This document shows positions 1,226 to 64,000 of a DNA stretch of 64,000 bases, piece by piece (position 1 is the stretch's first letter; the number at the start of each line of letters is the position of its first letter). The notes beneath the pieces are model-generated. The model was not told where the DNA came from. It searched no databases and saw nothing but the letters and a program-made list of their open reading frames with translations. The position numbers and the translations under genes are program-made. This DNA comes from Wickerhamiella versatilis. Its lineage: Eukaryota. The stretch covers positions 682,001-746,000 of the forward strand of contig JAQOWU010000001.1 in assembly GCA_030867685.1 (NCBI GenBank). The letters run 5' to 3'.

Positions 1226-1361
1226 TTGAGTATTACTAAGATCACAGAAATCCAATGCATTCACTGACTTGTTTTCAAAGGTATCGACCAAGCCAGTGTG
1301 TATAAAAATACTCTAAATTGAAATATGAATGAAAATATTTATATAAAAATTACTCAAAAAA

Positions 1362-2405
1362 TTACTTTTGAGGTGCATTCTCCTGTAAGTTGAGGTCCCT
1401 GATTTTCTCTTCAAGGTCCTTTTCAAGCTTGTCATCAATCTTATCATCGGTAGTGTTCGGTTTTTCAGCCGGTTTGGGTTTACTCTCAACTTTAGCGTGT
1501 ACCTGATTGTCACCTCCTTCCTGTTTTTCCTTTGGCGCATCCTTCTTCTTGCTTGGTTTCGAAGGTGAAGATGACTCTGTTTCTGCATTGAATACATACT
1601 TCGCATTTCCATCTTTTTCAGTCACCAGGACACCCTCAATCTCAGGGAATTCACCCAATGAGCCGAGTACCAACGTGTCGTTTTTACGATCACCAAAAGA
1701 TCCCACTCTTTCCATGTTGAAAAGCCAACGCGGGACATGCGATTCAACTAATTCTGGGAGCTGAGCAAATGGAAACACTTGCAACGAAGTTCCTGCGACA
1801 ATGCACAGGTCGACATCATCATCGAAGTCTTCATCAATACAGTCAAAGTATCGAGCAGGCAATGCTTCACCAAAGAATACGATATCCGGCTTTACAAGGC
1901 CGCCGCATGCAGGACAACGACACGGCTTTTCCTCTTCCACAGCTTTTTTCACAGTGTCACCATCGACAGTCTTCCCACATTCTATACAATGATTCTCTGC
2001 GAATGAACCATGCGCCTCGACAATCTTGTCTGGATGAACGCCTGCAATTCGTTCAAGAGTATCAATGTTCTGGGTATAAACACGTCTCAGCACACCGAGC
2101 TCAGAGACCCATGAAATGAAGCGATGAAATGAGGTGGGATTAAAGTTCCCAGGGTAAAGTCCTTTAGCCAGTACATAGAAAGCCTCTGGCTTCTCTCTGA
2201 AATAGTCAATGTCGAATACTGCCTCAGGAAACGGGAGGTTCAGTTTCGCCAAATTGGCATATAGCCCTGTTCCAGGTGATCGAAAGTCGGGAATACCAGC
2301 GGCTGTAGAGATCCCTGCACCCACCATAATTACCACGTTCTTGTATTTCCCACTTGCTAAATCGCGTATTAACTTCTCTGCATTACCGGCTCCTACCGCT
2401 GGCAT
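1362..2405 (-). CDS. HST2: Sir2-family NAD-dependent deacetylase, Hst2/SIRT2 type
   Basis: GAGISTAAGIPDFRSP, YTQNIDTLER, HGSF, two CxxC Zn pairs, KPDIVFFGE, GTSLQVFPFA, C-terminal NES-like LEEKIRDLNL. Start is ATG 2405 (AAAATG) or 2432; the track start at 2522 is TTG. Confidence 0.92.
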   Translation of the reverse strand: MPAVGAGNAEKLIRDLASGKYKNVVIMVGAGISTAAGIPDFRSPGTGLYANLAKLNLPFPEAVFDIDYFREKPEAFYVLAKGLYPGNFNPTSFHRFISWVSELGVLRRVYTQNIDTLERIAGVHPDKIVEAHGSFAENHCIECGKTVDGDTVKKAVEEEKPCRCPACGGLVKPDIVFFGEALPARYFDCIDEDFDDDVDLCIVAGTSLQVFPFAQLPELVESHVPRWLFNMERVGSFGDRKNDTLVLGSLGEFPEIEGVLVTEKDGNAKYVFNAETESSSPSKPSKKKDAPKEKQEGGDNQVHAKVESKPKPAEKPNTTDDKIDDKLEKDLEEKIRDLNLQENAPQK

Positions 2406-2532
2406 TTTCTGCGGCGAGCTTGTCTTCTTCATAAAGCTTGTAGTTGCCCACTGCGGCAAATACGAACGTAGCGATTCCCAGACCAAGGCGAATTCGTGGC
2501 GGTAATGCTCGATACCGCTCAAACAAAGACAT
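2383..2532 (-). CDS. Unannotated 49-aa single-TM microprotein overlapping the HST2 start
   Basis: ATG 2532 to TAA 2383: MSLFERYRALPPRIRLGLGIATFVFAAVGNYKLYEEDKLAAENASGRSR; basic amphipathic N-terminus plus GxGxxxxxxxxxG TM helix; below the ORF-track length cutoff. Confidence 0.6.
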   Translation of the reverse strand: MSLFERYRALPPRIRLGLGIATFVFAAVGNYKLYEEDKLAAENASGRSR

Positions 2533-2555
2533 TATATAATCGGCAGGTTCTAGCC

Positions 2556-6035: not shown

Positions 6036-6171
6036 GATCGTACTTAGTAATATGCACTATGTGCTGGACACGTTCAAGCGACCATTAACGATATCAGGCA
6101 AAATAATTTCATTAAATTGAATCATACACTATGCTAATTATTTAAATCATTCCATACATCAAGTCAATACT

Positions 6172-7459: not shown

Positions 7460-8112
7460 ATGAATGTCCTCGAAGTCACCAGGTACTTGACAAAAAGAAT
7501 ACATAAGGAGTCTAAAATTTCTCGGACCAACAAAAAAAGTAAATACCTAGCGCACCTGATGTTTATATTCACAAGAAGTCCAAGAAAATAAAAATCTCTA
7601 ATCCTTAAAGAATTTGGGTGTTGCTGCCGTGGAATGATGTACTATTACTAGCGGATTACCTTTATAGGGTGGAATATACTGGTTACTTGGTTTAAAGTCG
7701 TATTTTATTATTTTTAGGGAGTTTGCCAGATTACTTTTTCACGCATAGGGTTAGGATAAAAAACACTCACGTGATGAAAACTTATTTCCACGGGAGAGGG
7801 TTCAAGTCTTTAAGGGAGAGGTGGTTAAAAATACTCAAGGATTATCTCTCATTCAGAAATAAGATAGTGGGCCAATCTTGTAGATGATATACCTGTCGGC
7901 AGTCATGAGCCTTAGGACACTGCTAAAGTAAATTGAAATAATGAAGCTCTATTCAGTTTTGATTCAGTGGTTGAATAGCAGAAATATTAGCAATGATGCT
8001 GCAGTGCTACGGTTACTACACGAGATAAAGCGATAGATGCCTTCTCCCAACATATGTTACATAATAATTAGGTCCAAATTGAAAGAAATATTCTGGTGTG
8101 CACACAGCGCCG

Positions 8113-10131
8113 ATGTCGGATGATCTCAGCCCCATTAGGAGCGCTGCGCATTCTGCAAAAGAGGATCTAAAAAAAATCGACATTGCTCAGAGTCATGCAC
8201 CAAAATTTTACGATCCTGCACTTAATCCGGCTAATCAGCACGAATATCAAGAGCCTGCTCGTGGATTAAAGCCGCCTGGACCACCTCAACTTGAAGTTCC
8301 ACCAAGCACAGGGTCGCGGATTGAATTTGGAAAGGATGATATAGGAAAGGTGCGCGAAAAGGTAGAGAGTAATGACACCATTTCAACTCCAACTAATACG
8401 GAAGAAAATAATGAAAAACTTTTTCAGGAAGCATCTGACTCGATTGATGAAGCACAAGTTCGAGACATTGAGAGCCAAGAAAAGTCGCAACACTTGACAC
8501 CGCGTGATCGTCTCAAGCGATTGTACCGCCGGTATACCTGGGTGGTTGTTACATTTTGGGGTATCTTTTTCACAGCTTGGTGGGTATCTATCATAGCTCA
8601 AGATGATATGCGCCATAAATGGCTAATTCCTACGGTTCTATGGATTCTTTTCGAAATTCGCTTGATCACGTTGTACGTTCCTACACGCCCTTTACTTATG
8701 TGTGTTAATTGGGTGTGGAAACGTACGTTCATTGCGTGCCGTGACAAAATTCCGCGCAAATTTTGGACCCCTATTGAAGCTGTACTTGTTCTGATGACTA
8801 TTCTCGTTACGACATTTGCATCACCAGAAACAGATTCGTCCACGCTTAAGGATCGTGGTATCTCTTTCTTTGGCTATGTTGTATTTTATTTTGGATTTTT
8901 CTTGGCTTCCAATAATAAGAGTAAGATACAGTGGCACACGGTACTTGTCTGTATTTGGCTACAGTTTATCATTGGATTATTCGTACTCCGTACTAAAGCT
9001 GGTTATGACTTCTTCAATTGGATATCATTCATCGCTAGACGGCTTCTTCAATTTTCGCAAAATGGTGTCACCTTCCTTTCGAGTGAGGCATTTGCTAAAG
9101 GTGAAAAGCCATTCACTGCCGAATGGTTTATTGTCTCCACTCTTGCTTCACTGGTGTTTTTCGTTGCCTTTGTCCACATACTGTACTATTTTCATATTAT
9201 TCAGTGGTGTGTACGGAAAATTGGTGGCATTTGCTTCTGGCTTCTACGGATATCGGGATCGGAATCACTTGTGGTTGCGGCAACTCCTTTCTTTGGCCAG
9301 GGTGAGTGTGCTGTTCTAATCAAGCCTTTCCTTCCTCATGCAACAGAAGCAGAAATCTTCCAGTTTTCTGTGAGCTCATTTGCAACAATTGCGGGATCTG
9401 TACTCAACGGTTATATGTCCATGGGGGTACCCGGTCAAGCGTTGATCACTTCATGTGTGATGTCTATCCCGGCATCAGTTGCTGCTTCCAAGCTTGCCTA
9501 CCCGGAAACTGAAGAATCGTTGACAATGGACCAGGTTGTAATGCCTGAAGATCCGACAGAGGATTGTTATAACGTGATTCATGCTTTTTCAAATGGAGCT
9601 TGGCTGGGACTTCAGATTGCTTTTTCCATGGCGACAAACGTAATGTGCACAATTGCTATAGTGGCTCTCATTGACACCCTTCTTACATGGTTCGGCGGTT
9701 TCTGGAAGATTTACGACCCGGATCTCACACTTGAAGTCATCGGCGAATACTTATTTTACCCCGTCGCATGGCTTGTAGGTGTACAAGGGGGAGATATTTT
9801 GAAGACAGGCAAACTCATGGCTTACAAGATGGTTCAGAATGAATTTGTTGCCTATGCTCAATTGACAGCTAAAGACGGTGAATTCACTGGGATGGGGTTG
9901 AGATCCAAGATTCTGACGATGTATGCCATTTGCGGATTCTCGAACTTTGGTTCGATGGGTATTCAAATTGGTGTTCTTTCAGGGATGGCACCCAAACGTA
10001 AGGCGTCTATAGCGAAAGTCGTATTGCCTGCACTTTTCGTAGGTATGTTCTCCACTTTTTCATCAGCTGCTGTTGCTGGAATGGTAATGACAAACATATC
10101 GCAATATGCTGATACACTGGGTTTCAATTAG
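8113..10131 (+). CDS. CNT: Concentrative nucleoside transporter (CNT/SLC28), copy 1
   Basis: LQFIIGLFVLRTKAGYDFF, PFFGQGE, FATIAGSVL, SCVMSIPAS, NEFVAY, YAICGFSNFGSMGIQIG; ATG at 8113. Confidence 0.93.
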   Translation: MSDDLSPIRSAAHSAKEDLKKIDIAQSHAPKFYDPALNPANQHEYQEPARGLKPPGPPQLEVPPSTGSRIEFGKDDIGKVREKVESNDTISTPTNTEENNEKLFQEASDSIDEAQVRDIESQEKSQHLTPRDRLKRLYRRYTWVVVTFWGIFFTAWWVSIIAQDDMRHKWLIPTVLWILFEIRLITLYVPTRPLLMCVNWVWKRTFIACRDKIPRKFWTPIEAVLVLMTILVTTFASPETDSSTLKDRGISFFGYVVFYFGFFLASNNKSKIQWHTVLVCIWLQFIIGLFVLRTKAGYDFFNWISFIARRLLQFSQNGVTFLSSEAFAKGEKPFTAEWFIVSTLASLVFFVAFVHILYYFHIIQWCVRKIGGICFWLLRISGSESLVVAATPFFGQGECAVLIKPFLPHATEAEIFQFSVSSFATIAGSVLNGYMSMGVPGQALITSCVMSIPASVAASKLAYPETEESLTMDQVVMPEDPTEDCYNVIHAFSNGAWLGLQIAFSMATNVMCTIAIVALIDTLLTWFGGFWKIYDPDLTLEVIGEYLFYPVAWLVGVQGGDILKTGKLMAYKMVQNEFVAYAQLTAKDGEFTGMGLRSKILTMYAICGFSNFGSMGIQIGVLSGMAPKRKASIAKVVLPALFVGMFSTFSSAAVAGMVMTNISQYADTLGFN

Positions 10132-11369
10132 ACGATCATCACATCACATCACAGCACCAAATCTCTCGCATGTAAATATTAAGTATTTGTTCGAAACCTA
10201 TGTCAATTTTTTTAAGGTGTCAAGGCAGAGTGACTTAACTTTTAATGAAGACATGTATACAAGATCGCCCACTGTCTTGGCACAACTGTAGTTACTAACT
10301 TTACAACCACATTGGCTTGTAACGACATTCGGCAAGCCAGACTGGACCAGATGACCTGGTATAATATTTATGATATAGTCGCTAAACGTTTAATCTTTTG
10401 TTAAATTCTTCTGGACTCGAAAATTCTTAACATTTCCCATTTATAGTGCTTGTAAGATTTAAATTGTAGTGTTAACGAGTGGAAGCCGACCATTTCAATT
10501 AATTTGGATGATTTTGTAGAATCTAAATCGGAGTGCTGCAGTGGCTGGAATTTCATTATGAGCTAACCAAAGAGAAGACGGAAAAAATAACTCGGAAGCA
10601 TGCTAACCTCGCATTTCTGCTCTTTCTTTTTGATATCACAATTGGAAGCTTTTTTCGCGTAGCATTAAGTTCTGCTTCATCTCCTAAAAGTCGCCTGTGA
10701 AGCGTAAGTGCACATTTGACGTAAATGCGCAACTAAGAGTTATGAAGCGCTTGCTGATTTTAGATGTTGGAAACATTTGAGTTTCTCTCAGTCAGTATAA
10801 GAGATCTCTACTTTCCATTTTTTTTTGTCGATGATAATAATTGCCGCACAAAAAAATTGGAAATCCAATCTTTTACGAAATTTAATCTTTTACGAACTAT
10901 TACCTACAATTGCTATAGCGGTATAGACTGTAATTTAAGGGAATCATACGGCGAAGCGGCTTTAAGTGATGTTTTACATCTTTTGACTTGTCCAGATTGG
11001 ATTCTTTATCTATAGGGTTTGGGTATTTTATATTAGGTGATAACAGATTACCCACGGAAAATGGGCCACCCTCCCCCCTCCTCCGGCGAGACGGGGTTCT
11101 GTCTATAACTTCTAATACAAATGTTGTTCGTTGTGTCCGTAGATAAATGGCCTAGGAAATTAATATCAACCATGTGAGAGTGCTTCGGATAAACTGGAAT
11201 AGTAGCTTCCCATGGCTCTTGTACGGTGTCACAGTATAGAATCGCATTAGCAATGCCTTAACTACAATATGAGATAATGCGGTAGACACCCTTTCCCCAA
11301 TTATCTCATATCATTACTTAGACGCAGATTGATTGTAATAGAAATATTCCCTACGTCGCCTTTAGACCG

Positions 11370-13379
11370 ATGCCGGAAAATATCAGTCCCATCAAGAGTG
11401 CTGCGCATTCTGTAAAAGAGGATTTAAAAAAGCTCGACATTGCTCAGAGTCATACGGCAAAATCCTACGATCCGGCACTTAATCCGGCTAATCAGCACGA
11501 ATATCACGAGCCTGCTCATGGATTAAAGCCGCCTGGACCACCTGAACTTGAAGTTCCACCAAGTACTGGGTCGCGGATTGAATTTGGAAAGGATAATATA
11601 GGAGAATTACGTCGCCAAGATGAAGAGAGTGGTGGTTCATCTAATACAAAAAGCAGTGATGAAAAGAATCTTCGAGTAACAACTAGCTCGTTTGATGAAG
11701 GACAAGTTGGAGATATTGAGAGCCAAGAAAAGTCGCAACAGTTGACACCGCGTGATCGTCTCAAGCGGTTGTACCGCCGGTATACCTGGGTGGTTGTTAC
11801 ATTTTGGGGTATCTTTTTCACAGCTTGGTGGGTATCTATCATAGCTCAAGATGATATGCGCCATAAATGGCTAATTCCTACAGTTCTATGGATTCTTTTC
11901 GAAATTCGCTTGATCACGTTTTACGTTCCTACACGTCCTTTACTTATGTGTGTTAATTGGGTGTGGAAACGTACGTTCATTGCGTGCCGTGACAAAATTC
12001 CGCGCAAATTTTGGATTCCTATTGAAGCTGTCCTTGTTCTGATGACTATTCTCGTTACGACATTTGCATCACCAGAAACAGATTCGTCAACGCTTAAGGA
12101 TCGTGGTATCTCTTTCTTTGGCTATGTTGTATTTTATTTTGGATTTTTCTTGGCTTCCAATAATAAGAGTAAGATACAGTGGCACACGGTACTTGTCTGT
12201 ATTTGGCTACAGTTTATCATTGGATTATTCGTACTCCGTACTAAAGCTGGTTATGACTTCTTCAATTGGATATCATTCATCGCTAGACGGCTTCTTCAAT
12301 TTTCGCAAAATGGTGTCACCTTCCTTTCAAGTGAGGCATTTGCTAAAGGTGAAAAGCCATTCACTGCCGAATGGTTTGTTGTTTCTACCCTTGCTTCACT
12401 GGTGTTTTTCGTTGCCTTCGTCCACATACTGTACTATTTTCATATTATTCAGTGGTGTGTACGGAAAATTGGTGCTATTTGCTTCTGGCTGCTGCGGATA
12501 TCGGGGTCGGAATCACTTGTGGTTGCGGCAACTCCTTTCTTTGGCCAGGGTGAGTGTGCTGTTTTGATCAAGCCTTTCCTTCCTCATGCAACAGAAGCAG
12601 AAATCTTCCAGTTTTCTGTGAGCTCATTTGCAACAATTGCGGGATCTGTACTCAACGGTTATATGTCTATGGGGGTACCCGGTCAAGCGTTGATCACTTC
12701 ATGTGTGATGTCTATCCCGGCATCAGTTGCTGCTTCCAAGCTTGCTTACCCGGAAACTGAAGAATCGTTAACAATGGACCAGCTTGTAATGCCTGAAGAT
12801 CCGACAGAGGACTGTTATAACGTGGTTCATGCTTTTTCAAATGGAGCTTGGCTGGGACTTCAGATTGCTTTTTCCATGGCGACAAACGTAATGTGCACAA
12901 TTGCTATAGTGGCTCTCATTGACACTCTTCTTACGTGGTTTGGTGGTTTCTGGAAGATTTACGACCCGGACCTCACACTTGAAGTCATCGGCGAATACTT
13001 ATTTTACCCCGTCGCATGGCTTGTAGGTGTCCAAGGGGGAGATCTTTTGAAGACAGGCAAACTCATGGCTTACAAGATGGTTCAGAATGAATTTGTTGCC
13101 TATTCTCTGTTGACAGCTAAAGACGGTGAATTCACTGGGATGGGGTTGAGATCCAAGATTCTGACGATGTATGCCATTTGTGGATTCTCGAACTTTGGTT
13201 CGATGGGTATTCAAATTGGTGTTCTTTCAGGGATGGCACCCAAACGTAAGGCGTCTATAGCAGCAGTCGTACTGCCTGCACTTTTCGTAGGTATGTTCTC
13301 CACTTTTTCATCAGCTGCTGTTGCTGGAATGGTAATGACAAACCTATCGCAATATGCTGATACCCTCGGTTTCCATTAG
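11370..13379 (+). CDS. CNT: Concentrative nucleoside transporter (CNT/SLC28), copy 2 (tandem paralog)
   Basis: Same motifs as copy 1; near-identical DNA over the membrane domain. Confidence 0.93.
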   Translation: MPENISPIKSAAHSVKEDLKKLDIAQSHTAKSYDPALNPANQHEYHEPAHGLKPPGPPELEVPPSTGSRIEFGKDNIGELRRQDEESGGSSNTKSSDEKNLRVTTSSFDEGQVGDIESQEKSQQLTPRDRLKRLYRRYTWVVVTFWGIFFTAWWVSIIAQDDMRHKWLIPTVLWILFEIRLITFYVPTRPLLMCVNWVWKRTFIACRDKIPRKFWIPIEAVLVLMTILVTTFASPETDSSTLKDRGISFFGYVVFYFGFFLASNNKSKIQWHTVLVCIWLQFIIGLFVLRTKAGYDFFNWISFIARRLLQFSQNGVTFLSSEAFAKGEKPFTAEWFVVSTLASLVFFVAFVHILYYFHIIQWCVRKIGAICFWLLRISGSESLVVAATPFFGQGECAVLIKPFLPHATEAEIFQFSVSSFATIAGSVLNGYMSMGVPGQALITSCVMSIPASVAASKLAYPETEESLTMDQLVMPEDPTEDCYNVVHAFSNGAWLGLQIAFSMATNVMCTIAIVALIDTLLTWFGGFWKIYDPDLTLEVIGEYLFYPVAWLVGVQGGDLLKTGKLMAYKMVQNEFVAYSLLTAKDGEFTGMGLRSKILTMYAICGFSNFGSMGIQIGVLSGMAPKRKASIAAVVLPALFVGMFSTFSSAAVAGMVMTNLSQYADTLGFH

Positions 13380-28662: not shown

Positions 28663-29058
28663 CGAAGTAAAGTTGACTAAGCAAATTTCTTCATGTGGGA
28701 CCCGATTAGGCTCACTAGTCCAGGTCAAGTTAATGGAGATTGTAAGTATTCTACTCGCGAAGGGCGTAAGTGGAACTCATACCTTTTAATACGGTATCGA
28801 ATGATGTTTCTCGTCTCCAATGAAATAATAACCACATTATTTTTTTACCAAACTAAAACTTATTAGAAAGGCACAAATTTAGTTATTGAAGAAAATAAAT
28901 TAAGGTAAGCTAAAATAAAGCGGCAAAGTCTATCCGAGAAAAAGCCTCGTTAAATCGGAATTCTCCAACAAGCGTTGATTAAAAGTCAGGTATGTGGTAA
29001 GGAAGCACGTCCCAAGCACCCATTGGTCAGCTCTCTGTTCACACTAAGCTTTGCCTCA

Positions 29059-34526: not shown

Positions 34527-34598
34527 GCTGAGTCAATACAGAAAACAACGGAATTAGAAAAAAACAATTAGGCCTAATAAATATACATTTTAATATTG

Positions 34599-35393: not shown

Positions 35394-35797
35394 AGCACTA
35401 GCCCTATCTGATTTCCTGTCCGAGATCCGTCGAGTGACTAAGGGCTGTTTACCAGTACACCAAACAGAGTCACTCACTATTCTAGGAAGTCGATGACACA
35501 CGAACGGCAATTAGAGTAATATTCACCGTAATGGCAGTTGCCATATCGTTACCCTTAATATATGTCTTTTTTTCTTTTTTTTTGGTTACCAAGGTTAGAC
35601 GAGAGGTCCAAGAATGCTTGCTGACTTGAAACTCTGTTTTCAGAAAGACAAGCATCTTGATATAACTCAATAGCGGGAAAGAATACCTTCTAGCCATTTC
35701 AACCTAACTGACGTGGCCAATCTTCGATGCCCGCACGTGGTTGAATGCGTGTGGTTCCTATAGTGATTAGTCATCGTACTGCGGGACCTGCGCCTGG

Positions 35798-36088: not shown

Positions 36089-36296
36089 TATAATAAGATT
36101 ATGAAGACGACCCCTCTCCCCCTTCCAAAAAAGTTAGGCTATATATTGAATATGCTATTCCCAATTGCTAATGTGAATTCAAAATAATATTATTTCGCTC
36201 ATAGCTTAATTATTGCCTCCGCAACTGCCTGAAGAATTCACTTTCGAATCTGCGGAAAAAAATTTTTGACTAAGACCAATTATTCTGAACCGGCCA

Positions 36297-37521: not shown

Positions 37522-39213
37522 ATGCACTTGAGTACGCTCCGAAAGGCCCTGGTTCGTGAGCCCTCAGTGGATGATTCTGAGGACGAGAACATAGGCACAA
37601 GCATTGAGGACGACGATAGCGTGAGCTCTGGCGCCAGTATAGCGGACGCTTCAATTGCTACCTGGAGCTCACCATCCAGCATCGGGTACCATAGCGGGTC
37701 TACCATGAGCAGCATAGCCACATCTGTGACAAGCGAAGCAGAGATGGACTCTGATCTACCGGAAGAGGACAAGGATGATCTGCGGCAATCTTCCCGGAAG
37801 CACGATAAAGAGTTTCATAAGTTATTCCCAAATGTTCCTGAGGACGAGCGACTTGTTAAGTTCTATACTTGTGCTCTTGCCAGTGATATCCTACTTCAAG
37901 GCCGGTTTTTTGTTACATCCAAGCACATAGGCTTTCACAGCAACATCTTTGGATGGATCACGCACAAGGTGTTTAAACTATCTGATATTGAGGCATTTGA
38001 ACCAAAATCTACTGCAGGGATATTTCCTAACGCAATTCTTGTAAAAATGCGGGATGGCGAACGCTACACATTTGCTACTTTCGTAAACCGAGACGAGGCT
38101 CTTGCCTTACTAAACAAGGTACATCGGTCGGTTGTGCCATATCTGTCGGAACCCGCGGCACAAAGCTCCCCGGAAATTGACCGGATGAGTATAGACGACA
38201 CGGCCCCTGGAATGCGGAGCCACAAGAGCTCCATTAGCCACACGGGAGCAGCGCCACCCCAAAACACTACCACCGAAGAGGACATTCCCCAAACGCATGC
38301 ACCCACAAAATTGCCTCCTGTTGATGAGAAGGAAAATGTTATCATAGATGAGACCGTGGAAGCGCCGATGTCACGGGTTGCGAATCTTTTGTTCGACAAA
38401 AATACTGAGTTTTATCATCACTTTCTGGTTGAAGTCGAGGGAAATCGCGACCTCGACAAGATACCTGCATTTAAGGACAAGAAACGCTATTTCGAGTATA
38501 TCAAGCCCTTGAATGGACCAGTGGGCCCCAAGGAAACAAAATGTAAGTGCACCGAGACTATCGAGTCATGGGATCTTTATGATTCTGCCTCCATCCTACA
38601 AGCAACCGTCACGCCTGATGTGCCGTCAGGCAATGCATTCACAACCATGACGCGTATATGCCTAGCCTGGGCCCCCGAAAATAAAACGGCGCTTAGGATG
38701 AGTACCTGGATCGATTGGACCGGAAAATCATGGTTAAAGGGTCCTATTGAGAAGGGCGCCATCGATGGCCAGACGAGTTTCGCTCAGGATCTTGTCCAGG
38801 AACTGCACGCTAAGCTGGTATCAGGCGAGAGTACCTCGAAGCCCGTGGTTCAGGCACCGCCTAAGAAAGCTAAAGTAAGAAAGTCAAAGAAGGCGCCCCC
38901 AAGCTCGAGCATTCCTGTAAGTGTTCTCGTTGGTACCTTTGCGGTGCTCCTCCTGCTGGGTGCTATATATTTGGGCTTTTGTCATGCTAAGGACAGCCAT
39001 CCATCGAGAGATGTGCACCAAGATAGTCTCACTCTATTGGACCAGGAGCTCAAGTTGTGGGAATGGATTTATGATAGGTCTGCGGTTAATGCTGTCACAC
39101 GCCGCACAATGAATGAAAAGGAAGTTGAAGAAGCAATTCGTATCACGGAAATGAAACTCAAGCATTTGAAAGATGCGCTGGCTATTCCCTCGCGAGAGGG
39201 GAATTTTATTTAA
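37522..39213 (+). CDS. LAM/Ltc/Aster sterol transfer protein (GRAM + one VASt + TM + coiled coil)
   Basis: CALASDILLQGRFFV..FHSNIFGW GRAM domain; KPLNGPVGPK, TPDVPSGNAF, WTGKSWLKGPIEKG VASt domain. Confidence 0.88.
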   Translation: MHLSTLRKALVREPSVDDSEDENIGTSIEDDDSVSSGASIADASIATWSSPSSIGYHSGSTMSSIATSVTSEAEMDSDLPEEDKDDLRQSSRKHDKEFHKLFPNVPEDERLVKFYTCALASDILLQGRFFVTSKHIGFHSNIFGWITHKVFKLSDIEAFEPKSTAGIFPNAILVKMRDGERYTFATFVNRDEALALLNKVHRSVVPYLSEPAAQSSPEIDRMSIDDTAPGMRSHKSSISHTGAAPPQNTTTEEDIPQTHAPTKLPPVDEKENVIIDETVEAPMSRVANLLFDKNTEFYHHFLVEVEGNRDLDKIPAFKDKKRYFEYIKPLNGPVGPKETKCKCTETIESWDLYDSASILQATVTPDVPSGNAFTTMTRICLAWAPENKTALRMSTWIDWTGKSWLKGPIEKGAIDGQTSFAQDLVQELHAKLVSGESTSKPVVQAPPKKAKVRKSKKAPPSSSIPVSVLVGTFAVLLLLGAIYLGFCHAKDSHPSRDVHQDSLTLLDQELKLWEWIYDRSAVNAVTRRTMNEKEVEEAIRITEMKLKHLKDALAIPSREGNFI

Positions 39214-39793: not shown

Positions 39794-39915
39794 TCTATAA
39801 GAAAATGATGTTAATAACCCCCGCTTTATGGCGGGGGAGGTGGCTCAATAATAATAAGTCAAGGCTTACGTCTGAAACAGCCTTTCGTCACCTGGGCAAC
39901 TGCATGAATATTACA

Positions 39916-40431: not shown

Positions 40432-40483
40432 GCATGCCGCGACAGACCACTTAGTCCTATTGTGTCTTTGTAAGCAGAAATTG

Positions 40484-42578: not shown

Positions 42579-42627
42579 CTGAAACCTAACTTAGAGTAAA
42601 TATGCGTAACTCGTAAATACAATAGCC

Positions 42628-43191: not shown

Positions 43192-43863
43192 TTCTGTGGA
43201 ACGTATAATTTGTCATCTCCTGTAATCTGTTATAAATTGTCACAGAATGATCACTAAGTATAGGTGCCTAGGCGGGACGGGATAGGACAAGAAGGAAAGG
43301 AAAATTCTCATAATTTTTTGAGAGTCTAGAGACTACCAATTTTATTGTAGTATGATTTAGAGCTCGACATCACGGACTTGCTTCGCACTATGAATTTGGG
43401 TATCACTAGTGTCAAGTTTTGTTAAACATGTCTTAAATGGATACATCTAGATGTTATTTCAACTGGAAATTATCACTAATGACACTAAAAGGTTCACACT
43501 TTATACTCCGTAGTCTTGGGACACTGCAACATATGCGTTTTGATTAGTGTTCCTATCTGGAGCAACAGCGGTAAGGATGCCTTCAGAACCCAATTACTCT
43601 ACTAAAATGAAAGCGAATTATCTGAAAAAGAAGAAGAATACTCTATTCTGCCTCTATGGGCGTTTAAGGGAAATTCATAATTAGTGTAGTAGTTTCAACC
43701 CAGAACTATACATGAGTGGCAGGTAAGGACAACCAAAGAAATATCCTAGGTATTAAAAGGACAAACTCAATAATAACCGTAACCACAAACCATTCTTTTT
43801 TTCACGTCTTGGATTGCATTTAATTTACATGCATGTGTTAGTAATAGGAACGCGTCTACCGAA

Positions 43864-47754: not shown

Positions 47755-47828
47755 AAACTGCGGGGCAGTAGTGTAGTTTAATCTCTTAATTATTTTTAAT
47801 GAATCTTCAATAATTGATTTCGATAGCC

Positions 47829-47835
47829 AAAAAAA
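47829..47835 (-). terminator. Pol III oligo-T terminator of tRNA-Tyr
   Basis: A7 run on + strand (T7 on -) immediately after the discriminator base. Confidence 0.85.
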
Positions 47836-47920
47836 TCTCACGGGTGTGACTCGAACACACGATCCTAGGATGACTTGCTGACATTACAGTCCTATGCCTT
47901 ACCAGCTTGGCCACCGTGAG
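47836..47920 (-). tRNA. tRNA-Tyr(GTA) with 12-nt intron (47872-47883)
   Basis: Acceptor CTCACGG/CCGTGAG+A, D-arm GCC-AAGCTGGTAA-GGC, anticodon stem TAGGA/TCCTA with CTGTAA then intron after position 37, T-arm GTGTG-TTCGAGT-CACAC. Confidence 0.97.
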
Positions 47921-47968
47921 TGAATAATCGATATGTGAACTCTCCCGGAATTACTTCCACCCTATGTT

Positions 47969-48985
47969 CTAAGGACTAGTATCTCTGATTTTCAAAACAA
48001 TTTTACCGTAGTGGAGGTTTGAGTCCATCAATGCATGCGCATCTCTCACATTCTCCAATCGGAAAGTACTATGTATAACAGGGCGTATCTCGCCATGCTC
48101 GATTTTAGGCCATACTTGCTCCTCTAAGTCGCGAGCTACAAGCGCCTTCTCCTCAACAGTTCTAGCCCGCAATGTTGATCCTGTGTGTTGAAGCCTTTTT
48201 ATCATCAATGGAAAGAGGTTGACCTCTTTTGCAGGTCCCATCAAACTTGCGATCTGCACAATGCGGCCAAATTTCGCCGCTGCTTGATAATTGAGGTTAA
48301 CATATTCGCCTCCGACCATATCCAATATCAGATTGACACCAGTGCCATCCGTAAGTTTCGATACAGATTCAGCAAAATTCTCTTCATGGTAATTTATGGA
48401 GAGTGCACCTAGCTTCTCGCATACAGAAGCCTTTGCTGAAGACCCTACCGTTACAATGACGTGGGACGCTCCAAATGCCTTCGCTAGCTGAATTGCAGCA
48501 GTGCCTATACCAGAACTTCCACCATGGATGAGTATTTTTTCGCCCTTCGACAAACCTCCATCCTGAAAAACATTCGTCCAGACAGTCATGAACGTCTCAG
48601 GAATGGCGGCAGCTTCTGTCATACTGAGACCTGCTGGTACAGGAAGTGCGCTCTGTTCGTGGATCACACAATACTCGGCATATCCGCCTCCAGCAACAAG
48701 TCCACAAATCCTGCTACCAACAGAGAACCTCTTAACATCAGGTCCCGTAGCTACTACCTCTCCAGATATTTCTAGCCCAGGGATATCAGAGGCTCCTGGG
48801 GGAGGTGGATATTTACCCTGTCTCTGCATGACATCTGGTCGGTTTATACCTGCAGCAGATACTAGGACAAGCAATTCTCCCTTACCTGGCTTTGGTACAG
48901 GTCTTTCTTCGCACACTATGACTTCGGGTCCTCCAGCTCCCTTAAAAACCGCAGCTTTCATTTGCGATGGCAGGTTCTGCGTCAT
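47969..48985 (-). CDS. NAD(P)H quinone oxidoreductase, PIG3 family, bacterial-type
   Basis: INRPDVMQRQGKYPPPPGASDIPGLE, PETFMTVWTNVF, LIHGGSSGIG, TGSTLRAR, GKIVL; ATG at 48985. Confidence 0.9.
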   Translation of the reverse strand: MTQNLPSQMKAAVFKGAGGPEVIVCEERPVPKPGKGELLVLVSAAGINRPDVMQRQGKYPPPPGASDIPGLEISGEVVATGPDVKRFSVGSRICGLVAGGGYAEYCVIHEQSALPVPAGLSMTEAAAIPETFMTVWTNVFQDGGLSKGEKILIHGGSSGIGTAAIQLAKAFGASHVIVTVGSSAKASVCEKLGALSINYHEENFAESVSKLTDGTGVNLILDMVGGEYVNLNYQAAAKFGRIVQIASLMGPAKEVNLFPLMIKRLQHTGSTLRARTVEEKALVARDLEEQVWPKIEHGEIRPVIHSTFRLENVRDAHALMDSNLHYGKIVLKIRDTSP

Positions 48986-49166
48986 GTTACAGTATCCAGA
49001 CAGGCTAACTAAGCGATAAACGATTTGGTCTAGAACAGAGCAACTACTTGCGGGCAAACAGGGAAGCAATCATCATGCAATTCGAAGCTTAAGCGAAGGA
49101 AAAGAAAAATAAGAGATATATTATAATTTTAAACAACACCTACATATAATAATGCCAGAGACGTCG

Positions 49167-51440: not shown

Positions 51441-51651
51441 AACCCACCTGGTGCTTAGATAAGTCGGGCGTTTATCTTATTCTTTCAAAAAATGTATGAG
51501 ACAAAAAGTCTAGTTTGTGTAAATGGTTTAAGGAATAGTCACTTCTGAAGCTACTATCCTAAACTCCTCTTTAGAAATAGTTTGCCTCTTCATGGCTTTG
51601 CCTGCCTACTAACATCGTAGATATGTGTGACTAAGTATCCCTGTCCGGCCA

Positions 51652-53016
51652 ATGGTCGTGGGCTTGTCCGATCTTCCTTGCGAGGTAGTATCCCTAATTA
51701 GTTCCTATTGCGGACAAGCAGATACCGTGAACTTTTCTTTAACGACTCCCTTGTTCCATGAGATAATCATAAGTCAGCTGTATCGCTCAATCTTTATAGA
51801 CACAGGTCCATGCTCACTTGCTCGACCTTACAAGAATATCGAGGGAAGGTTGGTTCCCTGCACTGTATTAAGGACGGTGGCAGGAATAAATCAATTCCTT
51901 CATGTCGTGAGCTCCAACAAGGCTCTTGCAGCTAAGGTTTGGGCATTTGAGTGTCGTTCCAATGTCGGCCTAAGTGATATCCAATTCTTTTCTAACTTAC
52001 ATGCGGCATTTGAGAACCTAAGTTGTTTGTCAATACTAGAATGGTCTGCTTGCCCTGAACTTCCACCTGATTTGTTCTGCGTACTTCCACACCCTGAACG
52101 ACTGCAACTCCTTCGGGCTGATCTGGCAGTTCGTCCTTGGCAGTCTTATCCGACTGTAGACTTTTCAAACCTTAGAGTCCTAGAAGTTCGACCTTTCCTA
52201 AATGCACAGTTTTTGCAATGGCTGAGCGAAGCTACTGCAGTGGCACCCCTTGAGGCAGTTATGCTGGGGAGATTTCTAGATTCAAAACAGGAAATTGGCA
52301 GTGGATACAGGTTCGTTGGGTTATCTGCTCCTGGATATGTCGATGTAGCGTCTTTTTTTCGTGACAAGAGCCTTAAACCATACAAATTTGGGGTAATGGG
52401 GGCTGGGCTCAGCGCAAAAGTGATGGAGAATGTGGACTTTAGGCAAGTTGAAGAACTCGTGTTAGCAGGATGTGATGCTGCTGGTTCCAGTATAATCAAT
52501 ACTTTGACTGGTAGACTTCCAAACGTGACATCTCTCCGTCTCGACTGGCCTCATTGGACGCCAGCTTTTGTAAAGCAATTAAATCTTCGAAACCTGGATC
52601 TAACAGTGAAGCACTCACCAGAAGAAGCAATGAAAATTGTAAGTAACCAACTGGAACTGCAATCTTTAGCCATAACGATGGATTGTTCCTTCTCTACGTC
52701 AGACTTAGAGTCACTACGGGTATTGACTGGGCTAAGGAAGTTGACAATACCTTTCGATTACTATTCAAGGACCTGGGAAATCGCATTGATGCTTCCAAGA
52801 CTGGAAGTCCTCATCTTGAATTATCAAACATTTGTAACAGGAAGACCCAGTCGTGCTCACGTGGGTCTTCTGAATACTGGGATATATGATGGCTGGAGCG
52901 ACAGGGATGTTTCCCCGCTTCAGAATTCAGCTATTCTTGAATCTCTTAAATCACACCCATCTCTGAAAACTGTCATAATAGATGGAAGAACTACGACCTT
53001 CAAATTACATGAATAA
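51652..53016 (+). CDS. F-box protein with LRR-like C-terminal region
   Basis: LSDLPCEVVSLISSY...LYRSI F-box; repeated LxxLxL units. Confidence 0.7.
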   Translation: MVVGLSDLPCEVVSLISSYCGQADTVNFSLTTPLFHEIIISQLYRSIFIDTGPCSLARPYKNIEGRLVPCTVLRTVAGINQFLHVVSSNKALAAKVWAFECRSNVGLSDIQFFSNLHAAFENLSCLSILEWSACPELPPDLFCVLPHPERLQLLRADLAVRPWQSYPTVDFSNLRVLEVRPFLNAQFLQWLSEATAVAPLEAVMLGRFLDSKQEIGSGYRFVGLSAPGYVDVASFFRDKSLKPYKFGVMGAGLSAKVMENVDFRQVEELVLAGCDAAGSSIINTLTGRLPNVTSLRLDWPHWTPAFVKQLNLRNLDLTVKHSPEEAMKIVSNQLELQSLAITMDCSFSTSDLESLRVLTGLRKLTIPFDYYSRTWEIALMLPRLEVLILNYQTFVTGRPSRAHVGLLNTGIYDGWSDRDVSPLQNSAILESLKSHPSLKTVIIDGRTTTFKLHE

Positions 53017-53098
53017 CGAATAACGAATTAGCTCTACTAGCTGGGCACTTGGTACTTCTTCGATATCTCTATAAAAGTCATTAGGAATACTATAGTAG

Positions 53099-53959
53099 TC
53101 ACAGATTTTTATGGACACGAATCATATGACGTTTGACCGCGTCTGGCCGTTTGAACATCTTCGGACAAACTAGGCAATTGAACTTAGCAAGGGAGTGCAC
53201 AGTATCCATATGGCGTGTGCAATCTGCTGTTTTATGGAAACCAATAATGGACCAAATACAATGCTCGTCAGAGCATTTATGAGGTCTGAAATTTGCAGGA
53301 TGGCTAAGGTCCAAGTGCTCTTCTAATGACCCAAGAGTTTCAAATTTTTTGCTACATTGACGCCCACATGTTTGGGTTCCTTTGATTGTCTTTAAGGCAG
53401 CTTTGGTTATGATAGAAGACTTGGATATTGCGATAGAGCGGGGACCAACAATAGCTAGTTGATGGAAAGTTCTGTCGCATTGTTTTCCTCTTATTCTCTC
53501 AGTAGTCTCCGTGATGGAATCGGGTGAAGATGGAATTGAACATGCAGATGATAGAGGACTGACAGGAGGGGATAATGGGTGTGGGGCTGACAATGGCTTC
53601 TGGTCACACTCGTTCCCGTTAATTGGCTGCTTCGTGATTGTCTCATTGTTTGATGTAATATCATTAATGCATAGCACAGACGATGAAACGGTATGCTCTG
53701 GCCTTTCAGAAATCTCGTTGATGTGCGTTTTCTCGTCGTATACCTTAAAGTCAGGTAATACATGTGATGCACTGTCACAGCTATAAAGCTCTTCATCATA
53801 ATTCCAGCATAGAGAAAAACTGTCTGTGTCGATAAGTGGAGATATTGGGGGCATAGGGTCCAGAGTCTCATAGCTTTCGACTTCTCCTAGAAATTGCCTT
53901 CGAACCTCATCTACAGTCACAAGTCCAGGATAAATTAGGTCAATTGGTGACATACTCAT
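53099..53959 (-). CDS. RME1: C2H2 zinc-finger transcription factor, Rme1-like
   Basis: Three C-terminal fingers, including the atypical CxxxxCxWxIxGF..RH finger and FKRPDAVKRHMIRVH end. Confidence 0.6.
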   Translation of the reverse strand: MSMSPIDLIYPGLVTVDEVRRQFLGEVESYETLDPMPPISPLIDTDSFSLCWNYDEELYSCDSASHVLPDFKVYDEKTHINEISERPEHTVSSSVLCINDITSNNETITKQPINGNECDQKPLSAPHPLSPPVSPLSSACSIPSSPDSITETTERIRGKQCDRTFHQLAIVGPRSIAISKSSIITKAALKTIKGTQTCGRQCSKKFETLGSLEEHLDLSHPANFRPHKCSDEHCIWSIIGFHKTADCTRHMDTVHSLAKFNCLVCPKMFKRPDAVKRHMIRVHKNL

Positions 53960-54356
53960 TTATAGGAAGCGAAGAAATACGGCGCTGCTTGAGCTTTTAT
54001 GTACTATGCGTGTGCTATACCGCGGTGGGAGAGCACCCACCTCAGGTAAACCACCGGGCTAGTCACCATGGGCAACTATGAAAGTATAAAACTCGCTATA
54101 TCAGACAAAGCTCAAGCAATAATAAGACCTTTTAGGAAAATAAAGTATTGTCATAAAAGAGGATTCATTATTGCGGAATACTATGCCTTGCTTCTCTATG
54201 ATAAAATAAATCAGAATAGTAATACTGATATCAATTAAATGTGCTTTTACGTTATTAAAAAGGTTATCTATAAAAAAAAACACCAGGTCTTGTCAATTTA
54301 AAATTCTCGTAAGTCTTTCATATGACTAAGCTTCCGACAGTGTGCCGTGTTGCCGA

Positions 54357-54929
54357 ATGGGAAAAGCTTCCAGCAAACTGTCTAAGGAAGAACTCCGTGA
54401 GCTGAAGACCAATACTTATTTTGAAGGGAAGGAGCTTCAACAATGGTATAAGGGCTTTCTGAAGGATTGTCCCTCGGGGCATCTTACACGAGACTCTTTG
54501 CGAGAAGTTTATAAACAGTTTTTTCCTTTTGGTGATCCCACGACGTTCAGTGATCTAGTGTTTAACATTTATGATACCGACAACAGCGGCACAGTTGACT
54601 TTAAGGAGTTTATAACCGCACTATCTATTTCAAGTCGTGGCACAATCGACGAAAAGCTCCGGTGGGCGTTTAAATTGTACGACCAGAATGGTGATGGAAA
54701 AATCAGCGCCCAGGAAATGCTTCGTATAGTAGAGGCAATATACAAGTTAATTGGGTCGATGATGAAGGTTCCAGAAGATGAGTCTACCCCAGAGAAAAGA
54801 GTAAACAAACTATTCTCAATGATGGATGTGGACCATGATGGGCAGATTACTTTTGATGAATTCTGCGAAGGTTCTAAGAAGGACCAGAGTATAGTTTCAG
54901 CCTTAAATCTTTATGATGGTTTGGTATAG
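54357..54929 (+). CDS. FRQ1: Frequenin / neuronal calcium sensor
   Basis: [10 protein letters not shown] myristoylation start, [16 protein letters not shown]-hands, [18 protein letters not shown]. Confidence 0.97.
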
Positions 54930-55823: not shown

Positions 55824-55988
55824 TCCCAGGAACGTTAGTAATACAGACTAGGATTGCCCTTGGTTAGTAGCCTGGTGCGAAGTACCCGGTGAAGAGATTT
55901 TGACCTTAGAAGTAGAATCATATAAAAAATACTGATACAATTCCTAACTTAGTGTTTTTAGAACTAACAAGTCTGTCCAGCAGACTTC

Positions 55989-58037: not shown

Positions 58038-58153
58038 AGACTCTTTTCAGAGGGTTAGTAAGCAAACTCTTGATACTTTAAATTGTATATTCCATCCTGA
58101 GCTTTATAGGATAAGAAATAATCAATAAAACAGAATGCTGCTATCACTATAAT

Positions 58154-61873: not shown

Positions 61874-62279
61874 GTGATATACCTCGTCCAGACTTTATCG
61901 CTTTATATACTCTTATAATAAATATTCTGATGCTAATTAGACAAAACTCTATTCTACCACCACACTTGTCTAGGAGCAATAGTCAGAATTTTGAAAAGTT
62001 TTAAGGAGAGATCAGTGCTTTCAGATAAAATAAAGCTGAGGTATTATATCCAATTACGCCACGGTCTAGAGGTATATTAATTCAAGAAAGATACTTGAAA
62101 CAGATTTATCGTTCTAGATTAGATTAGACAATAATCATTGGAAGAAACGAAATTGAGTTGTTTCAAAGAAATATGACCTAAAAAGGAATCCTTATATTTT
62201 CGAATATCTGAGGTAGCAGCAATTCACCGGAAAGACTGTTTATGACTTATTACTACTGAGAAACCCAATTTATTCACGA

Positions 62280-63137
62280 CTAAATCTTAAGAGTGTCAAA
62301 GTCGGACTCACTATGCCGTTCAGTCAGGCCAGGTGGATCACTAAATGGCTTGTTCACTGCTAGACCTTTCCTGACAGCCGGGCGCTTAAGAAGCTTATCA
62401 CTCCATGCTTTGACGTGTGGGTATTCATGGACGCTTAGGAACTCACCAGCTCCATAAAGACGACCTTCAACCAACTGACCAACCCACGGTACAGTTGCGA
62501 TATCAGCGATAGTGTACTCATCTCCTGCAATATAGGGAACTTCCTTAAGTCTTCTTTCGAGGACATCAAGTAATCTCTTTGTCTCAAGAGCATACCTGTT
62601 AATAGCATATTCAATTTTGACTGGAGCGTAGGCATAGAAATGACCGAAACCGCCACCAATGAAAGGCGCACTTCCTACCTGCCAGAAAAGCCAATTTAGC
62701 GTTTCCGTACGATTGGCTATATCCTTGGGCAGGAAAGCGCCAAACTTCTCTGCTAGATACAAGAGTATAGAGCCTGATTCGAATATGCGAAGAGGACTGT
62801 CAGTGTTGCTTCGATCAACCAAAGCTGGAATCTTTGAATTCGGATTGATATCCACAAATCCACTGCTAAATTGATCGCCCTGGCCGATGTTGATAAGCCA
62901 AGCATCATAATCTGCATCCTTGTATCCAAGAGAAAGTAGCTCCTCGAGGAGAATTGTCACTTTAGCACCATTAGGAGTCCCCAAAGAATACAATTGTAGA
63001 GGATGTTCTCCAATTGGCAGTTCTTTGTCGTGAGTGGGTCCAGCCGTAGGTCTGTTAATGTTGGCAAACTTACCGCCACCTGACTTGTCCCATTTCCAGA
63101 CCTTCGGTGGAACATATTCTCCGTGACTTGTACTCAT
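62280..63137 (-). CDS. yghU: YghU-type (Nu-class) GST / glutathione-dependent disulfide oxidoreductase, bacterial-type
   Basis: YVPPKVWKW, FANINRPTAG, HPLQLYSLGTPNG, GDQFSSGFVDINPNSKIPAL, GGGFGHFYAYAP, ERHSESDF; ATG at 63137. Confidence 0.92.
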   Translation of the reverse strand: MSTSHGEYVPPKVWKWDKSGGGKFANINRPTAGPTHDKELPIGEHPLQLYSLGTPNGAKVTILLEELLSLGYKDADYDAWLINIGQGDQFSSGFVDINPNSKIPALVDRSNTDSPLRIFESGSILLYLAEKFGAFLPKDIANRTETLNWLFWQVGSAPFIGGGFGHFYAYAPVKIEYAINRYALETKRLLDVLERRLKEVPYIAGDEYTIADIATVPWVGQLVEGRLYGAGEFLSVHEYPHVKAWSDKLLKRPAVRKGLAVNKPFSDPPGLTERHSESDFDTLKI

Positions 63138-63743
63138 GTTGGTTTTAGATATCAGGCTTCTTCCAACGAAACTGATCAGATATTTATGTCGAGTTGCTGT
63201 GCTGATGTGATTGCACGTTGGGACGATGATGTGATGTGGGCGTCTAAGCATTATATTAGCGATCTTAGACGTATATTGTGTAATCTGTAATCTGGCAGGC
63301 CCGAATGGTTAGTTAGCTTTATAGTTCAGCCAAAACTCAGCGGTGACTCCTTACAAATAATCCAAATAATCCACATTGTCAAGCCCACTACCGTAAGATG
63401 ACTTCACCCTTAGCGCTTGATTAGGTATACCATACTGAGACTGATAATTCCAAGATGTATCTCACATTTATATCAATGCTAGAAAATTTTGACAAAGTTC
63501 TTTCTCGAAATCACTTATCATAAGCAAGCTTGATAGTCCTAGTCATCTAAATATATTGCTGACTCATCATGTTTTACTGTGGCTAATATAAGACAAAGTT
63601 GCTAAACATTTCAAGGATATATAGGTTTTCCATCAAACGCACTGGCTGCTCTGAACTTTGTATCAGGTACTTCCGACACAATTTAACTATACAATTCTGT
63701 ATACGTAAACAAAACTCAGCAAATGTGTCATCAGGTGTGAGTA

Positions 63744-64000
63744 ATGGATTGGGCACGAGCGGACCGGTGGCATTCGCCATCATCACGCGAGGAGTCTGAG
63801 GAGCCTGTGCATCTAGGGAGGCATAGCGATGATTCCCTAGCAATTGAGCAAACGTTTTCCGACAATGCTAGGATTGAACGAATAGCATCAAATGCCTCCA
63901 GTGCCACAGGAAAGCTGTATCGACAACTTTCGCACCACCCTTTAGACGATTCTGGTGCACAAGACGCAAGAGAATTGGAAAAGCCAGGACATAATGAAGT
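63744..64000 (+). CDS. 5' end of a gene running off the right edge (hydrophilic N-terminus, partial)
   Basis: ATG 63744 stays open to the window end: MDWARADRWHSPSSREESEEP...IERIASNASS; resembles the cytosolic N-tails of transporters but is not identifiable. Confidence 0.5.
   Translation, partial: MDWARADRWHSPSSREESEEPVHLGRHSDDSLAIEQTFSDNARIERIASNASSATGKLYRQLSHHPLDDSGAQDARELEKPGHNE

Follow-up and report, generated by a model that had tools for sequence, protein, structure and literature searches.

A YRE-O-like word, T[GT]ACTAA[GC], lies next to start codons and is avoided in coding DNA: a candidate element of TATA-less promoters in Wickerhamiella versatilis

Promoters that lack a TATA box carry other short words, several of which resemble an element that we describe here from the yeast Wickerhamiella versatilis. 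The element, T[GT]ACTAA[GC] (related to the AP-1-like heptamer TKACTMA), lies next to start codons in a 64,000-nucleotide stretch of contig JAQOWU010000001.1 (positions 682,001 to 746,000; hereafter the window, with positions counted from its first letter). TATA-less housekeeping promoters of animals carry YY1/TISU, DRE, Motif 1, ETS and CRE/ATF motifs that peak sharply near the transcription start site (TSS), some of them with very short leaders. In Saccharomyces cerevisiae, the general regulatory factors Reb1, Abf1 and Rap1 are abundant at many TATA-less housekeeping promoters; such factors have roadblock activity and their sites are scarce in open reading frames (ORFs). In cap analysis of gene expression (CAGE) from yeasts that follow the scanning model of initiation, REB1 and ABF1 motifs occupy TATA-like positions and seldom occur with a TATA box, and a pyrimidine-purine step at the TSS is general in yeasts (PMC7849388, excerpt). 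HomolD of Schizosaccharomyces pombe is an octamer, CAGTCACA/G, that is bound by Rrn7, directs TATA-less initiation in either orientation, lies 39-52 bp upstream of where transcription starts and marks ribosomal-protein genes (PMC10253590, excerpt). The YRE-O form of the Yap response element (YRE) has the Yap1p/Cap1p consensus MTKASTMA, and experiments have characterised TTACTAA, TTAGTCA, TTACTCA and TGACTCA as sites of Yap1p (PMC3111461, excerpt).

We analysed 41 non-overlapping ORFs of at least 90 aa, which account for 82% of the window and are separated by intergenic gaps of 24-1238 nt, together with one ORF at the right edge. TKACTMA was rarer in the window overall than in whole-window shuffles (20 matches versus 37.7 expected), and 12 of the 20 matches fell within 50 nt upstream of an ATG, at 12 of the 41 ORFs. 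When the right-edge ORF was included, the heptamer was carried by 13/42 ORFs, and the matches divided into 13 in 5′ flanks, four in other intergenic DNA and three in coding sequence (CDS). Its density was 6.5 per kb in the 50-nt 5′ flanks, compared with 0.58 in 3′ flanks (one match), 0.51 in other intergenic DNA and 0.06 in CDS, so that 5′ flanks exceeded the other non-coding classes 11-13-fold and CDS about 100-fold. Dinucleotide shuffles of the 41 flanks gave a mean of 1.21 matches and a maximum of 5, and none of the 2000 reached the observed 12. The matches were also tightly placed, with eight at 1-25 nt from the ATG, four at 26-50 nt and none at 51-125 nt. In agreement, an unbiased k-mer scan of 60-nt upstream flanks returned ACTAAG/CTTAGT as the top 6-mer, present in 10 of 41 flanks against 0.94 expected. 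A first-pass annotation of this DNA, made from its letters, had counted the element at about 13 of 43 genes, judged this far above chance and proposed a genome-wide positional test with dinucleotide-shuffled and 3′-intergenic controls; run within the window, such a test upheld the enrichment (12 of the 41 ORFs against 1.21 expected, with the right-edge ORF in addition).

With respect to the adjacent gene, seven of the 12 sites are in sense and five in antisense orientation, and their intergenic contexts are divergent in six cases, tandem in six and convergent (3′-3′) in none. Both orientations and the lack of convergent sites fit a DNA-level promoter signal rather than a terminator or an RNA signal. 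The six sites in divergent gaps of 211-672 nt stay within 41 nt of their own ATG, and the six in tandem gaps of 72-208 nt are placed at the ATG-proximal end; many intergenic regions here measure only 72-136 nt. We ruled out a repeat origin, since the flanks of the sites are mutually unrelated and no repeat family overlaps them. Beside an isolated intergenic copy (10292) we found neither a convincing small ORF nor a convincing RNA gene. In eight distant fungal metagenome contigs (GC 51-63%), only 1 of 29 TKACTMA matches fell in a 5′ flank, a weak negative control rather than a comparison of orthologues (their cullins share 29-37% identity). The cullin of the window itself (32259-34526) is 52% identical to a protein of Wickerhamiella sorbophila and 44-46% identical to Trichomonascus proteins, and other relatives share 89% and about 50-54%; these values place the host in the Wickerhamiella/Starmerella group.

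Five of the 12 sites read TGACTAAG, all on the plus strand: 28674..28681, 11 nt from ATG 28662 of the minus-strand mitochondrial L2 (RML2) ORF; 35435..35442, 41 nt from ATG 35393 of the minus-strand ORF 34599-35393; 36267..36274, 23 nt from ATG 36297 of QTRT2; 51628..51635, 17 nt from ATG 51652; and 54323..54330, 27 nt from ATG 54357 of the FRQ1-like ORF. On the minus strand, TTACTAAC occurs at 43837..43844 (19 nt from ATG 43864, HAT2-like), 55834..55841 (11 nt from ATG 55823, SEC17) and 58054..58061 (17 nt from ATG 58037, M3-peptidase or OCT1-like ORF). TTACTAAG is found at 1233..1240 on the plus strand, 7 nt from ATG 1225 of the minus-strand TAF3-like ORF (Bromo_TP), and at 6043..6050 on the minus strand, 8 nt from ATG 6035 of the zeta-COP (RET3-like) ORF. 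The remaining two, both on the minus strand, are TGACTCAG at 34528..34535, 2 nt from ATG 34526 of CDC53/cullin in an intergenic region that measures 72 nt in its entirety, and TGACTAAT at 35766..35773 (TTAGTCA on the plus strand), 24 nt from ATG 35798 of the C1D/LRP1-like ORF. The right-edge ORF (85 aa, open at the window end, without a Pfam match) has its ATG at 63744, and a minus-strand TTACTCA at 63738..63744 overlaps the A of this codon. All 13 heptamer positions and the ATG gaps agreed exactly with the first-pass annotation, as did this last overlap.

The genes concerned are, as had been claimed, unrelated in function: a TAF, COPI zeta, mitochondrial L2 (mitoribosome), a cullin, C1D (an exosome cofactor), QTRT2 (tRNA modification), an NCS protein, SNAP and an M3 peptidase. 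Ten of the gene names proposed for motif-bearing ORFs were backed independently. Pfam supported the TAF3-like (Bromo_TP), zeta-COP, mitochondrial L2, C1D/Lrp1, QTRT2, NCS-type EF-hand, SNAP/Sec17 and M3 peptidase assignments, the cullin was named from precomputed annotation, and the HAT2 gene is RBBP4/Hat2-like by a Protein Atlas match. The other two names, 'SRF1' (ORF 34599-35393) and 'the F-box gene' (ORF 51652), found no match in the Pfam scan. As a separate observation, QTRT2 (36288-36299) and ORF 51652 (51643-51654) have a start-codon context, CCGGCCAATG, in common.

Comparison of the four heptamers refined the consensus. TGACTAA was 5′-proximal in 6/6 copies and TTACTAA in 5/7, as against 1/4 for TGACTCA and 0/3 for TTACTCA (1/3 counting the right-edge ORF). 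The TAA half was present in 11/12 ATG-proximal sites, and the base after the heptamer was G or C in 11/12. T[GT]ACTAA[GC] occurs 11 times in the window, with 10 copies ATG-proximal and none in 52.6 kb of CDS, and all seven copies of TKACTAAG lie in 5′ flanks. A or C flanks the TKA side in 7/12 sites; the base that flanks the TAA side, taken from the opposite strand, is C in eight, G in three and A in one. The heptamers had been described as Yap1/Gcn4-type sites: they match the Yap YRE-O consensus, whereas the Gcn4-type TGACTCA stands outside the enriched set.

One-mismatch variants were enriched about 3-fold in 5′ flanks. Near-matches previously noticed at ATP5, at the pair formed by ORF 40431 and MRPL49 and at a quinone oxidoreductase (QOR) gene are indeed present as promoter variants of this type, namely ACACTAAG at 29041..29048 (plus strand, 10-11 nt from ATG 29059 of the ATP5/OSCP ORF), GGACTAAG at 40450..40457 (minus strand, between divergent ORFs and 18 nt from the minus-strand ATG 40431) and TAACTAAG at 49006..49013 (plus strand, 20 nt from ATG 48985 of the minus-strand QOR-like ORF). 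In addition, CTACTAAC lies beside two of the exact sites, as a variant at 51606-51613 and as a second copy by SEC17 at 55863-55870. The '8-bp CRE-like variants' reported by SMX2 (TTATGTCA, 13702) and VTC2 (TTACATAA, 16483) proved non-canonical and were left uncounted; no canonical cAMP response element (CRE) or YRE-A occurs in the window.

Avoidance of the element in coding DNA was assessed against 300 shuffles of synonymous codons in which the proteins and the codon usage of each gene were held fixed. TKACTMA occurred three times in CDS compared with 27.3 expected, a depletion of about 9-fold (Poisson 5e-9), and no shuffle gave fewer than 13. TKACTAA was found once, against 13.6 expected; this sole CDS copy lies in a GRAM/VASt ORF (38107..38113, plus strand). 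Both strands were affected (sense 2 versus 14.1; antisense 1 versus 13.7), and by observed/expected ratio in CDS all four heptamers ranked 138-169 of 8087. Control words were not depleted (0.63 with a central A/T, 1.22 with reversed halves, 1.55 with swapped halves and 0.88-1.06 for anagrams of equal TA content). Such a strand-symmetric purge from ORFs points to an activity at the DNA level that is harmful within transcription units, as a cryptic start or an obstacle to polymerase.

Transcript 5′ ends were taken from four RNA runs (X8 and X11-X13) that carry the same species label, mapped on the 20 kb from 34400 to 54399. Their reads show some 446 differences from the window in this interval (~2.2%), and the alternative letters are common to all four, so the RNA strain and the window strain are distinct lineages. 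The 5′ ends given here are the best-supported positions, beside a further 202 loose-end and 225 begin/end positions. Loose read ends in X11-X13 carry tails such as GTATCAACGCAGAGTACATGGG, which we take to be the tail of a template-switching oligo, and on this assumption the loose ends mark capped 5′ ends.

Starts placed in this way lie close to the element. At the LRP1-like gene, the cap site 35773 (plus strand; 69 loose-end reads in X11 and 48 in X13) is the last A of the TTAGTCA motif itself. Reads of the FRQ1-like gene are clipped at a strain indel at 54347 and their loose parts extend back to 54332-54336, with 5 of 35 X11 reads going further, which places the start 3-7 nt past the motif. 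ORFs 39916-40431 (minus strand) and 40424-40999 (plus strand, L21p/MRPL49-like) overlap at their 5′ ends as mechanically called; the MRPL49-like cap site at 40477 (plus strand), 20 nt past the variant site 40450..40457, implies that the true ATG is 40484, and with this start the overlap is gone. Since fragment ends of X8 fall 12-20 nt inside cap sites known from X11-X13, an X8 pile-up at 48980 puts the QOR-like start 6-14 nt past its variant site. Across these four promoters with the motif or a one-mismatch variant, the start is thus 0-20 nt downstream. In addition, reads with the strand bias of 5′ ends still cover 35411 at ORF 34599-35393, X8 depth at QTRT2 climbs from 27 (36284) to 157-158 (36308), and 25 X8 molecules begin at 38127, 14 nt past the CDS-internal TKACTAA at 38107, a pile-up with no loose end among the listed positions that may represent an internal start downstream of the CDS copy.

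Comparison cap sites at motif-less genes behaved differently from those at the element. The start at 39798 (minus strand, ORF 39449-39793) has ATAAAG at -31 and that at 43202..43204 (minus strand, ORF 42628-43191) has TATAA at -30. Such a spacing of about 30 nt fits classic, non-scanning initiation. Scanning initiation is reported to have arisen after the split from Yarrowia (PMC7849388, excerpt), and scanning-mode starts lie 40-120 bp downstream (PMC8589449, excerpt). Promoters whose ATG has an ACTAA-type core within 50 nt, 16 in all, show no TATA-like word within 60 nt. Capped leaders are very short in both groups, at 5 nt (39798), 7 nt (40477), 11-13 nt (43202-43204) and 25 nt (35773).

Some further features of this 20-kb interval touch on its transcription. 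An antisense cap site at 36893/36896 (minus strand) lies inside the QTRT2 ORF, 27-36 nt past TTATAAAA, suggesting that in this yeast every TATA word triggers a start at a constant spacing of about 30 nt. Likely poly(A) sites fall 11-40 nt past stop codons (34588, 39248, 39409 and 41038); transcription units almost abut. Four X8 reads match the window from 36294 onward, and their ~80 preceding letters match nowhere in it; these ends could stem from a paralogue or a chimera, or the strain may be rearranged just upstream of the ATG of QTRT2. A C2H2-finger ORF (53099-53959, minus strand) is essentially silent in all four runs (bin depth 0-1.3).

Of the described systems, HomolD is functionally the closest to this element. 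Both are short, non-TATA octamers found in both orientations, and they have a GACT/AGTC core in common. They differ in position and gene set, in that the element of W. versatilis ends 0-20 nt before mapped 5′ ends, on varied genes, whereas HomolD, as the excerpt describes it, lies further upstream at ribosomal-protein genes. The HomolD octamer CAGTCACA/G is absent from promoters in the window, and its three copies are all in CDS. The likeness to YRE-O is one of sequence, since 12/12 ATG-proximal sites match the same 7-bp pseudo-palindrome, TKA(C/G)TMA, as given in the excerpt on Yap1p sites. However, YREs mark oxidative-stress and drug regulons, whereas the element here is found at about 30% of ORFs, on unrelated constitutive genes and within 50 nt of the ATG; its TAA half, moreover, is fixed, with G or C after it, and it strongly avoids ORFs.

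In its distribution over many constitutive promoters (13/42 ORFs) and its avoidance elsewhere, the element behaves like the sites of general regulatory factors. Reb1, Abf1 and Rap1 nonetheless belong to other DNA-binding families with other motifs, and in S. cerevisiae their sites are further upstream of the TSS, whereas this element abuts the start. The start-proximal motifs of animals belong to another kingdom and to other factors, and TISU, unlike the element here, takes in the ATG and is downstream of the TSS. Finally, there is some likeness to the initiator (Inr, YYANWYY), because at one mapped start the first base is an A that belongs to a C-A step of the motif, but the element is present in both orientations and its spacing to the start is variable. 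In the literature searched, supplements aside, the 8-mers do not appear as a named motif, the sole match concerning mouse ATF3, and no paper on promoter motifs or start sites of Starmerella or Wickerhamiella was found.

Together, these results make it well supported that T[GT]ACTAA[GC] is a selected, promoter-proximal element, with a putative binder and a causal role that we infer. We favour, with moderate confidence, the reading that it works, in either orientation, as a DNA element of TATA-less promoters in about one third of genes, and that an abundant factor bound there, likeliest a Yap/AP-1 bZIP protein, sets initiation. The start-adjacent position, the lack of TATA-like words (16/16 promoters) and the purge from ORFs suggest a high-occupancy factor at TATA-less promoters, and a word that fits the YRE-O consensus and is used in both orientations makes a dimeric Yap-type bZIP the likeliest putative binder. 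Under this model, an abundant sequence-specific protein, presumably a bZIP dimer of the Yap/AP-1 family, would occupy the site and would nucleate or delimit assembly of the pre-initiation complex. Initiation by RNA polymerase II would follow 0-20 nt downstream, and leaders would measure about 5-40 nt. Selection would clear the site from coding DNA on both strands because it is potent wherever present, and in tandem gaps of 72-136 nt the bound factor may additionally shield the promoter from upstream read-through. No bZIP family match was found among the 41 window ORFs and the right-edge ORF (40 Pfam scans, the cullin annotation and the RBBP4-like Atlas match).

Several observations weigh against this reading. 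The spacing from motif to TSS is variable (0-20 nt), unlike that of TATA or Inr. Plus-biased reads at QTRT2 are also found at 36173-36229, about 30 nt after TATATAT, which implies a TATA-driven start some 100 nt upstream and a leader that contains the motif. In 34400-54399, the best-supported positions give no precise TSS for five of the seven exact-motif promoters, and the pile-up at 38127 could consist of duplicate molecules. One ACTAAG (43253) is followed, 49 nt downstream, by a TATA-driven start, and the contrast between TATA and motif promoters covers too few genes and is not statistically significant. The footprint of the polymerase would overlap a dimer whose centre is 3-10 bp upstream of the start. 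The site is also asymmetric, with its fixed TAA half and then G or C, which is not clearly the A/C flank reported for Yap1p/Cap1p sites. Moreover, the motif reading is built on a single 64-kb window.

The first-pass annotation had proposed a bZIP-like core-promoter or TSS-positioning factor. The YRE-O word, the unrelated genes, the proximity to the ATG even in gaps of 400-670 nt, the nearby 5′ ends and the ORF avoidance all support this idea, but the spacing is not fixed and QTRT2 has upstream starts. A more specific version, which we put forward only tentatively and regard as doubtful, is that a Yap-type bZIP of the Wickerhamiella/Starmerella group has been re-used as a general initiator-binding substitute for TATA. 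Acting alone, it would set the polymerase II start within 0-20 nt at about one third of genes, so that promoters could be about 50 nt long and have leaders of 5-40 nt, with its site purged from ORFs on both strands.

Among the alternatives, an initiator-type core element read directly by TFIID or polymerase II, with no dedicated factor, survives best, and we still judge it unlikely. The motif is located at promoters without TATA, the LRP1-like cap site is the A of ...GTCA within it, and the antisense start at 36893 has the same GTC-A-TC context. However, the motif is present in both orientations relative to the gene, and starts lie 3-20 nt past it at the other three promoters, so the TSS is not at a fixed internal position. 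The three motif-less cap sites have only a pyrimidine-A step in common, and pseudo-palindromic half-sites are the structure expected for a dimeric DNA binder.

Alternatively, the bound factor might mainly be a roadblock or insulator against upstream read-through or antisense transcription, with proximity to the start as a secondary consequence. Roadblock termination by general regulatory factors is known in yeast, and the six sites at the ATG-proximal end of 72-208 nt tandem gaps are well placed for it. At CDC53, for example, the likely poly(A) site of the upstream gene (34588) is only 53 nt from the motif, and a strand-symmetric avoidance in ORFs fits an obstacle to polymerase. Six sites, though, lie in divergent regions that have no incoming upstream gene, and roadblocking alone leaves the starts just downstream unexplained. 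We therefore consider it improbable as the main function, although it is compatible with the factor-set initiation that we favour.

Somewhat less probable again is an ordinary Yap1/Gcn4 upstream activating sequence (UAS) for stress or amino-acid control that is ATG-proximal only because promoters are tiny. The sequence is identical to known Yap1p sites and many intergenic regions measure just 72-136 nt, but half of the sites (6/12) lie in the 211-672 nt divergent regions and are still within 41 nt of the ATG, with none at 51-125 nt. Furthermore, the genes are functionally unrelated and are not stress- or drug-response genes. For the sole classical Yap-type target, a glutathione S-transferase (GST) gene at 62280-63251, there is no more than a one-mismatch site, at -62. 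TGACTCA, the Gcn4 form, shows no enrichment (1/4 copies 5′-proximal), only 1/12 sites fits the symmetric core, and a 9-fold avoidance in ORFs is unexpected for a conditional UAS.

Two readings that place the signal in RNA are very improbable. If the sites were branch points (TACTAAC) of 5′-proximal introns, the ATGs of these ORFs would be misplaced. Three of the 12 do read TTACTAAC, in or against gene sense (43837, 55834 and 58054), and GTAAGT occurs upstream of the FRQ1-like motif. Against this, the four RNA runs gave no spliced joints over 34400-54399, no AG separates the SEC17 motif from its ATG and alignment to the SNAP profile begins at residue 2. Judged by their Pfam profiles, the TAF3-like, zeta-COP and C1D ORFs have complete N-termini. 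Five of 12 sites are antisense to the gene, and TGACTAAG, the reading of most sites, does not correspond to a branch point. A translation-guiding RNA element within very short leaders, like TISU, would also lie near the ATG, and leaders of 5, 7, 11-13 and 25 nt might suit it. Yet the LRP1-like and FRQ1-like motifs are upstream of the mapped 5′ end and so outside the mRNA, both orientations are used, and the antisense strand of ORFs is equally depleted. Chance, base composition or stop codons tolerated only outside ORFs would lead one to expect some non-coding excess of AT-rich heptamers with TAA, TAG or TGA, but the tests described above (11-13-fold excess over other non-coding DNA, 0/2000 shuffles, 27 CDS copies still expected with proteins preserved and 1/29 matches in 5′ flanks of the distant contigs) reject this explanation.

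Other features of the window fall outside this argument. Tandem paralogues of a concentrative nucleoside transporter (8110-10131 and 11367-13379) are about 90% identical over aligned blocks at a spacing of about 3250 nt; both have long upstream regions and neither has the motif. The telomere-repeat-like word CCCTAAC is found within 50 nt of the ATG at a HAT1-like gene (26336-26342) and at the GRAM/VASt gene (37485-37491), so that 2 of the 4 copies in the window are 5′-proximal, and it may be the site of a second start-proximal factor, of Tbf1 type. A tRNA gene of 85 nt (47836-47920, minus strand; Rfam 54.8 bits) probably contains an intron, as ARAGORN could not name its anticodon.

If the pattern holds genome-wide, it would be the second clear fungal case, after HomolD, of a short non-TATA word that defines promoters, and it would mean that the binding site of a stress factor has been re-used as general promoter architecture. 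The avoidance in ORFs offers a simple signature of the cost of cryptic initiation or roadblocks in compact genomes. If the reading is true, it would explain how promoters can be squeezed into gaps of 70-130 nt in a relative of the budding yeasts, and it would supply the Starmerella group, which is used in industry, with a promoter part that is both minimal and portable, besides a predictor of the TSS in these genomes from sequence alone.

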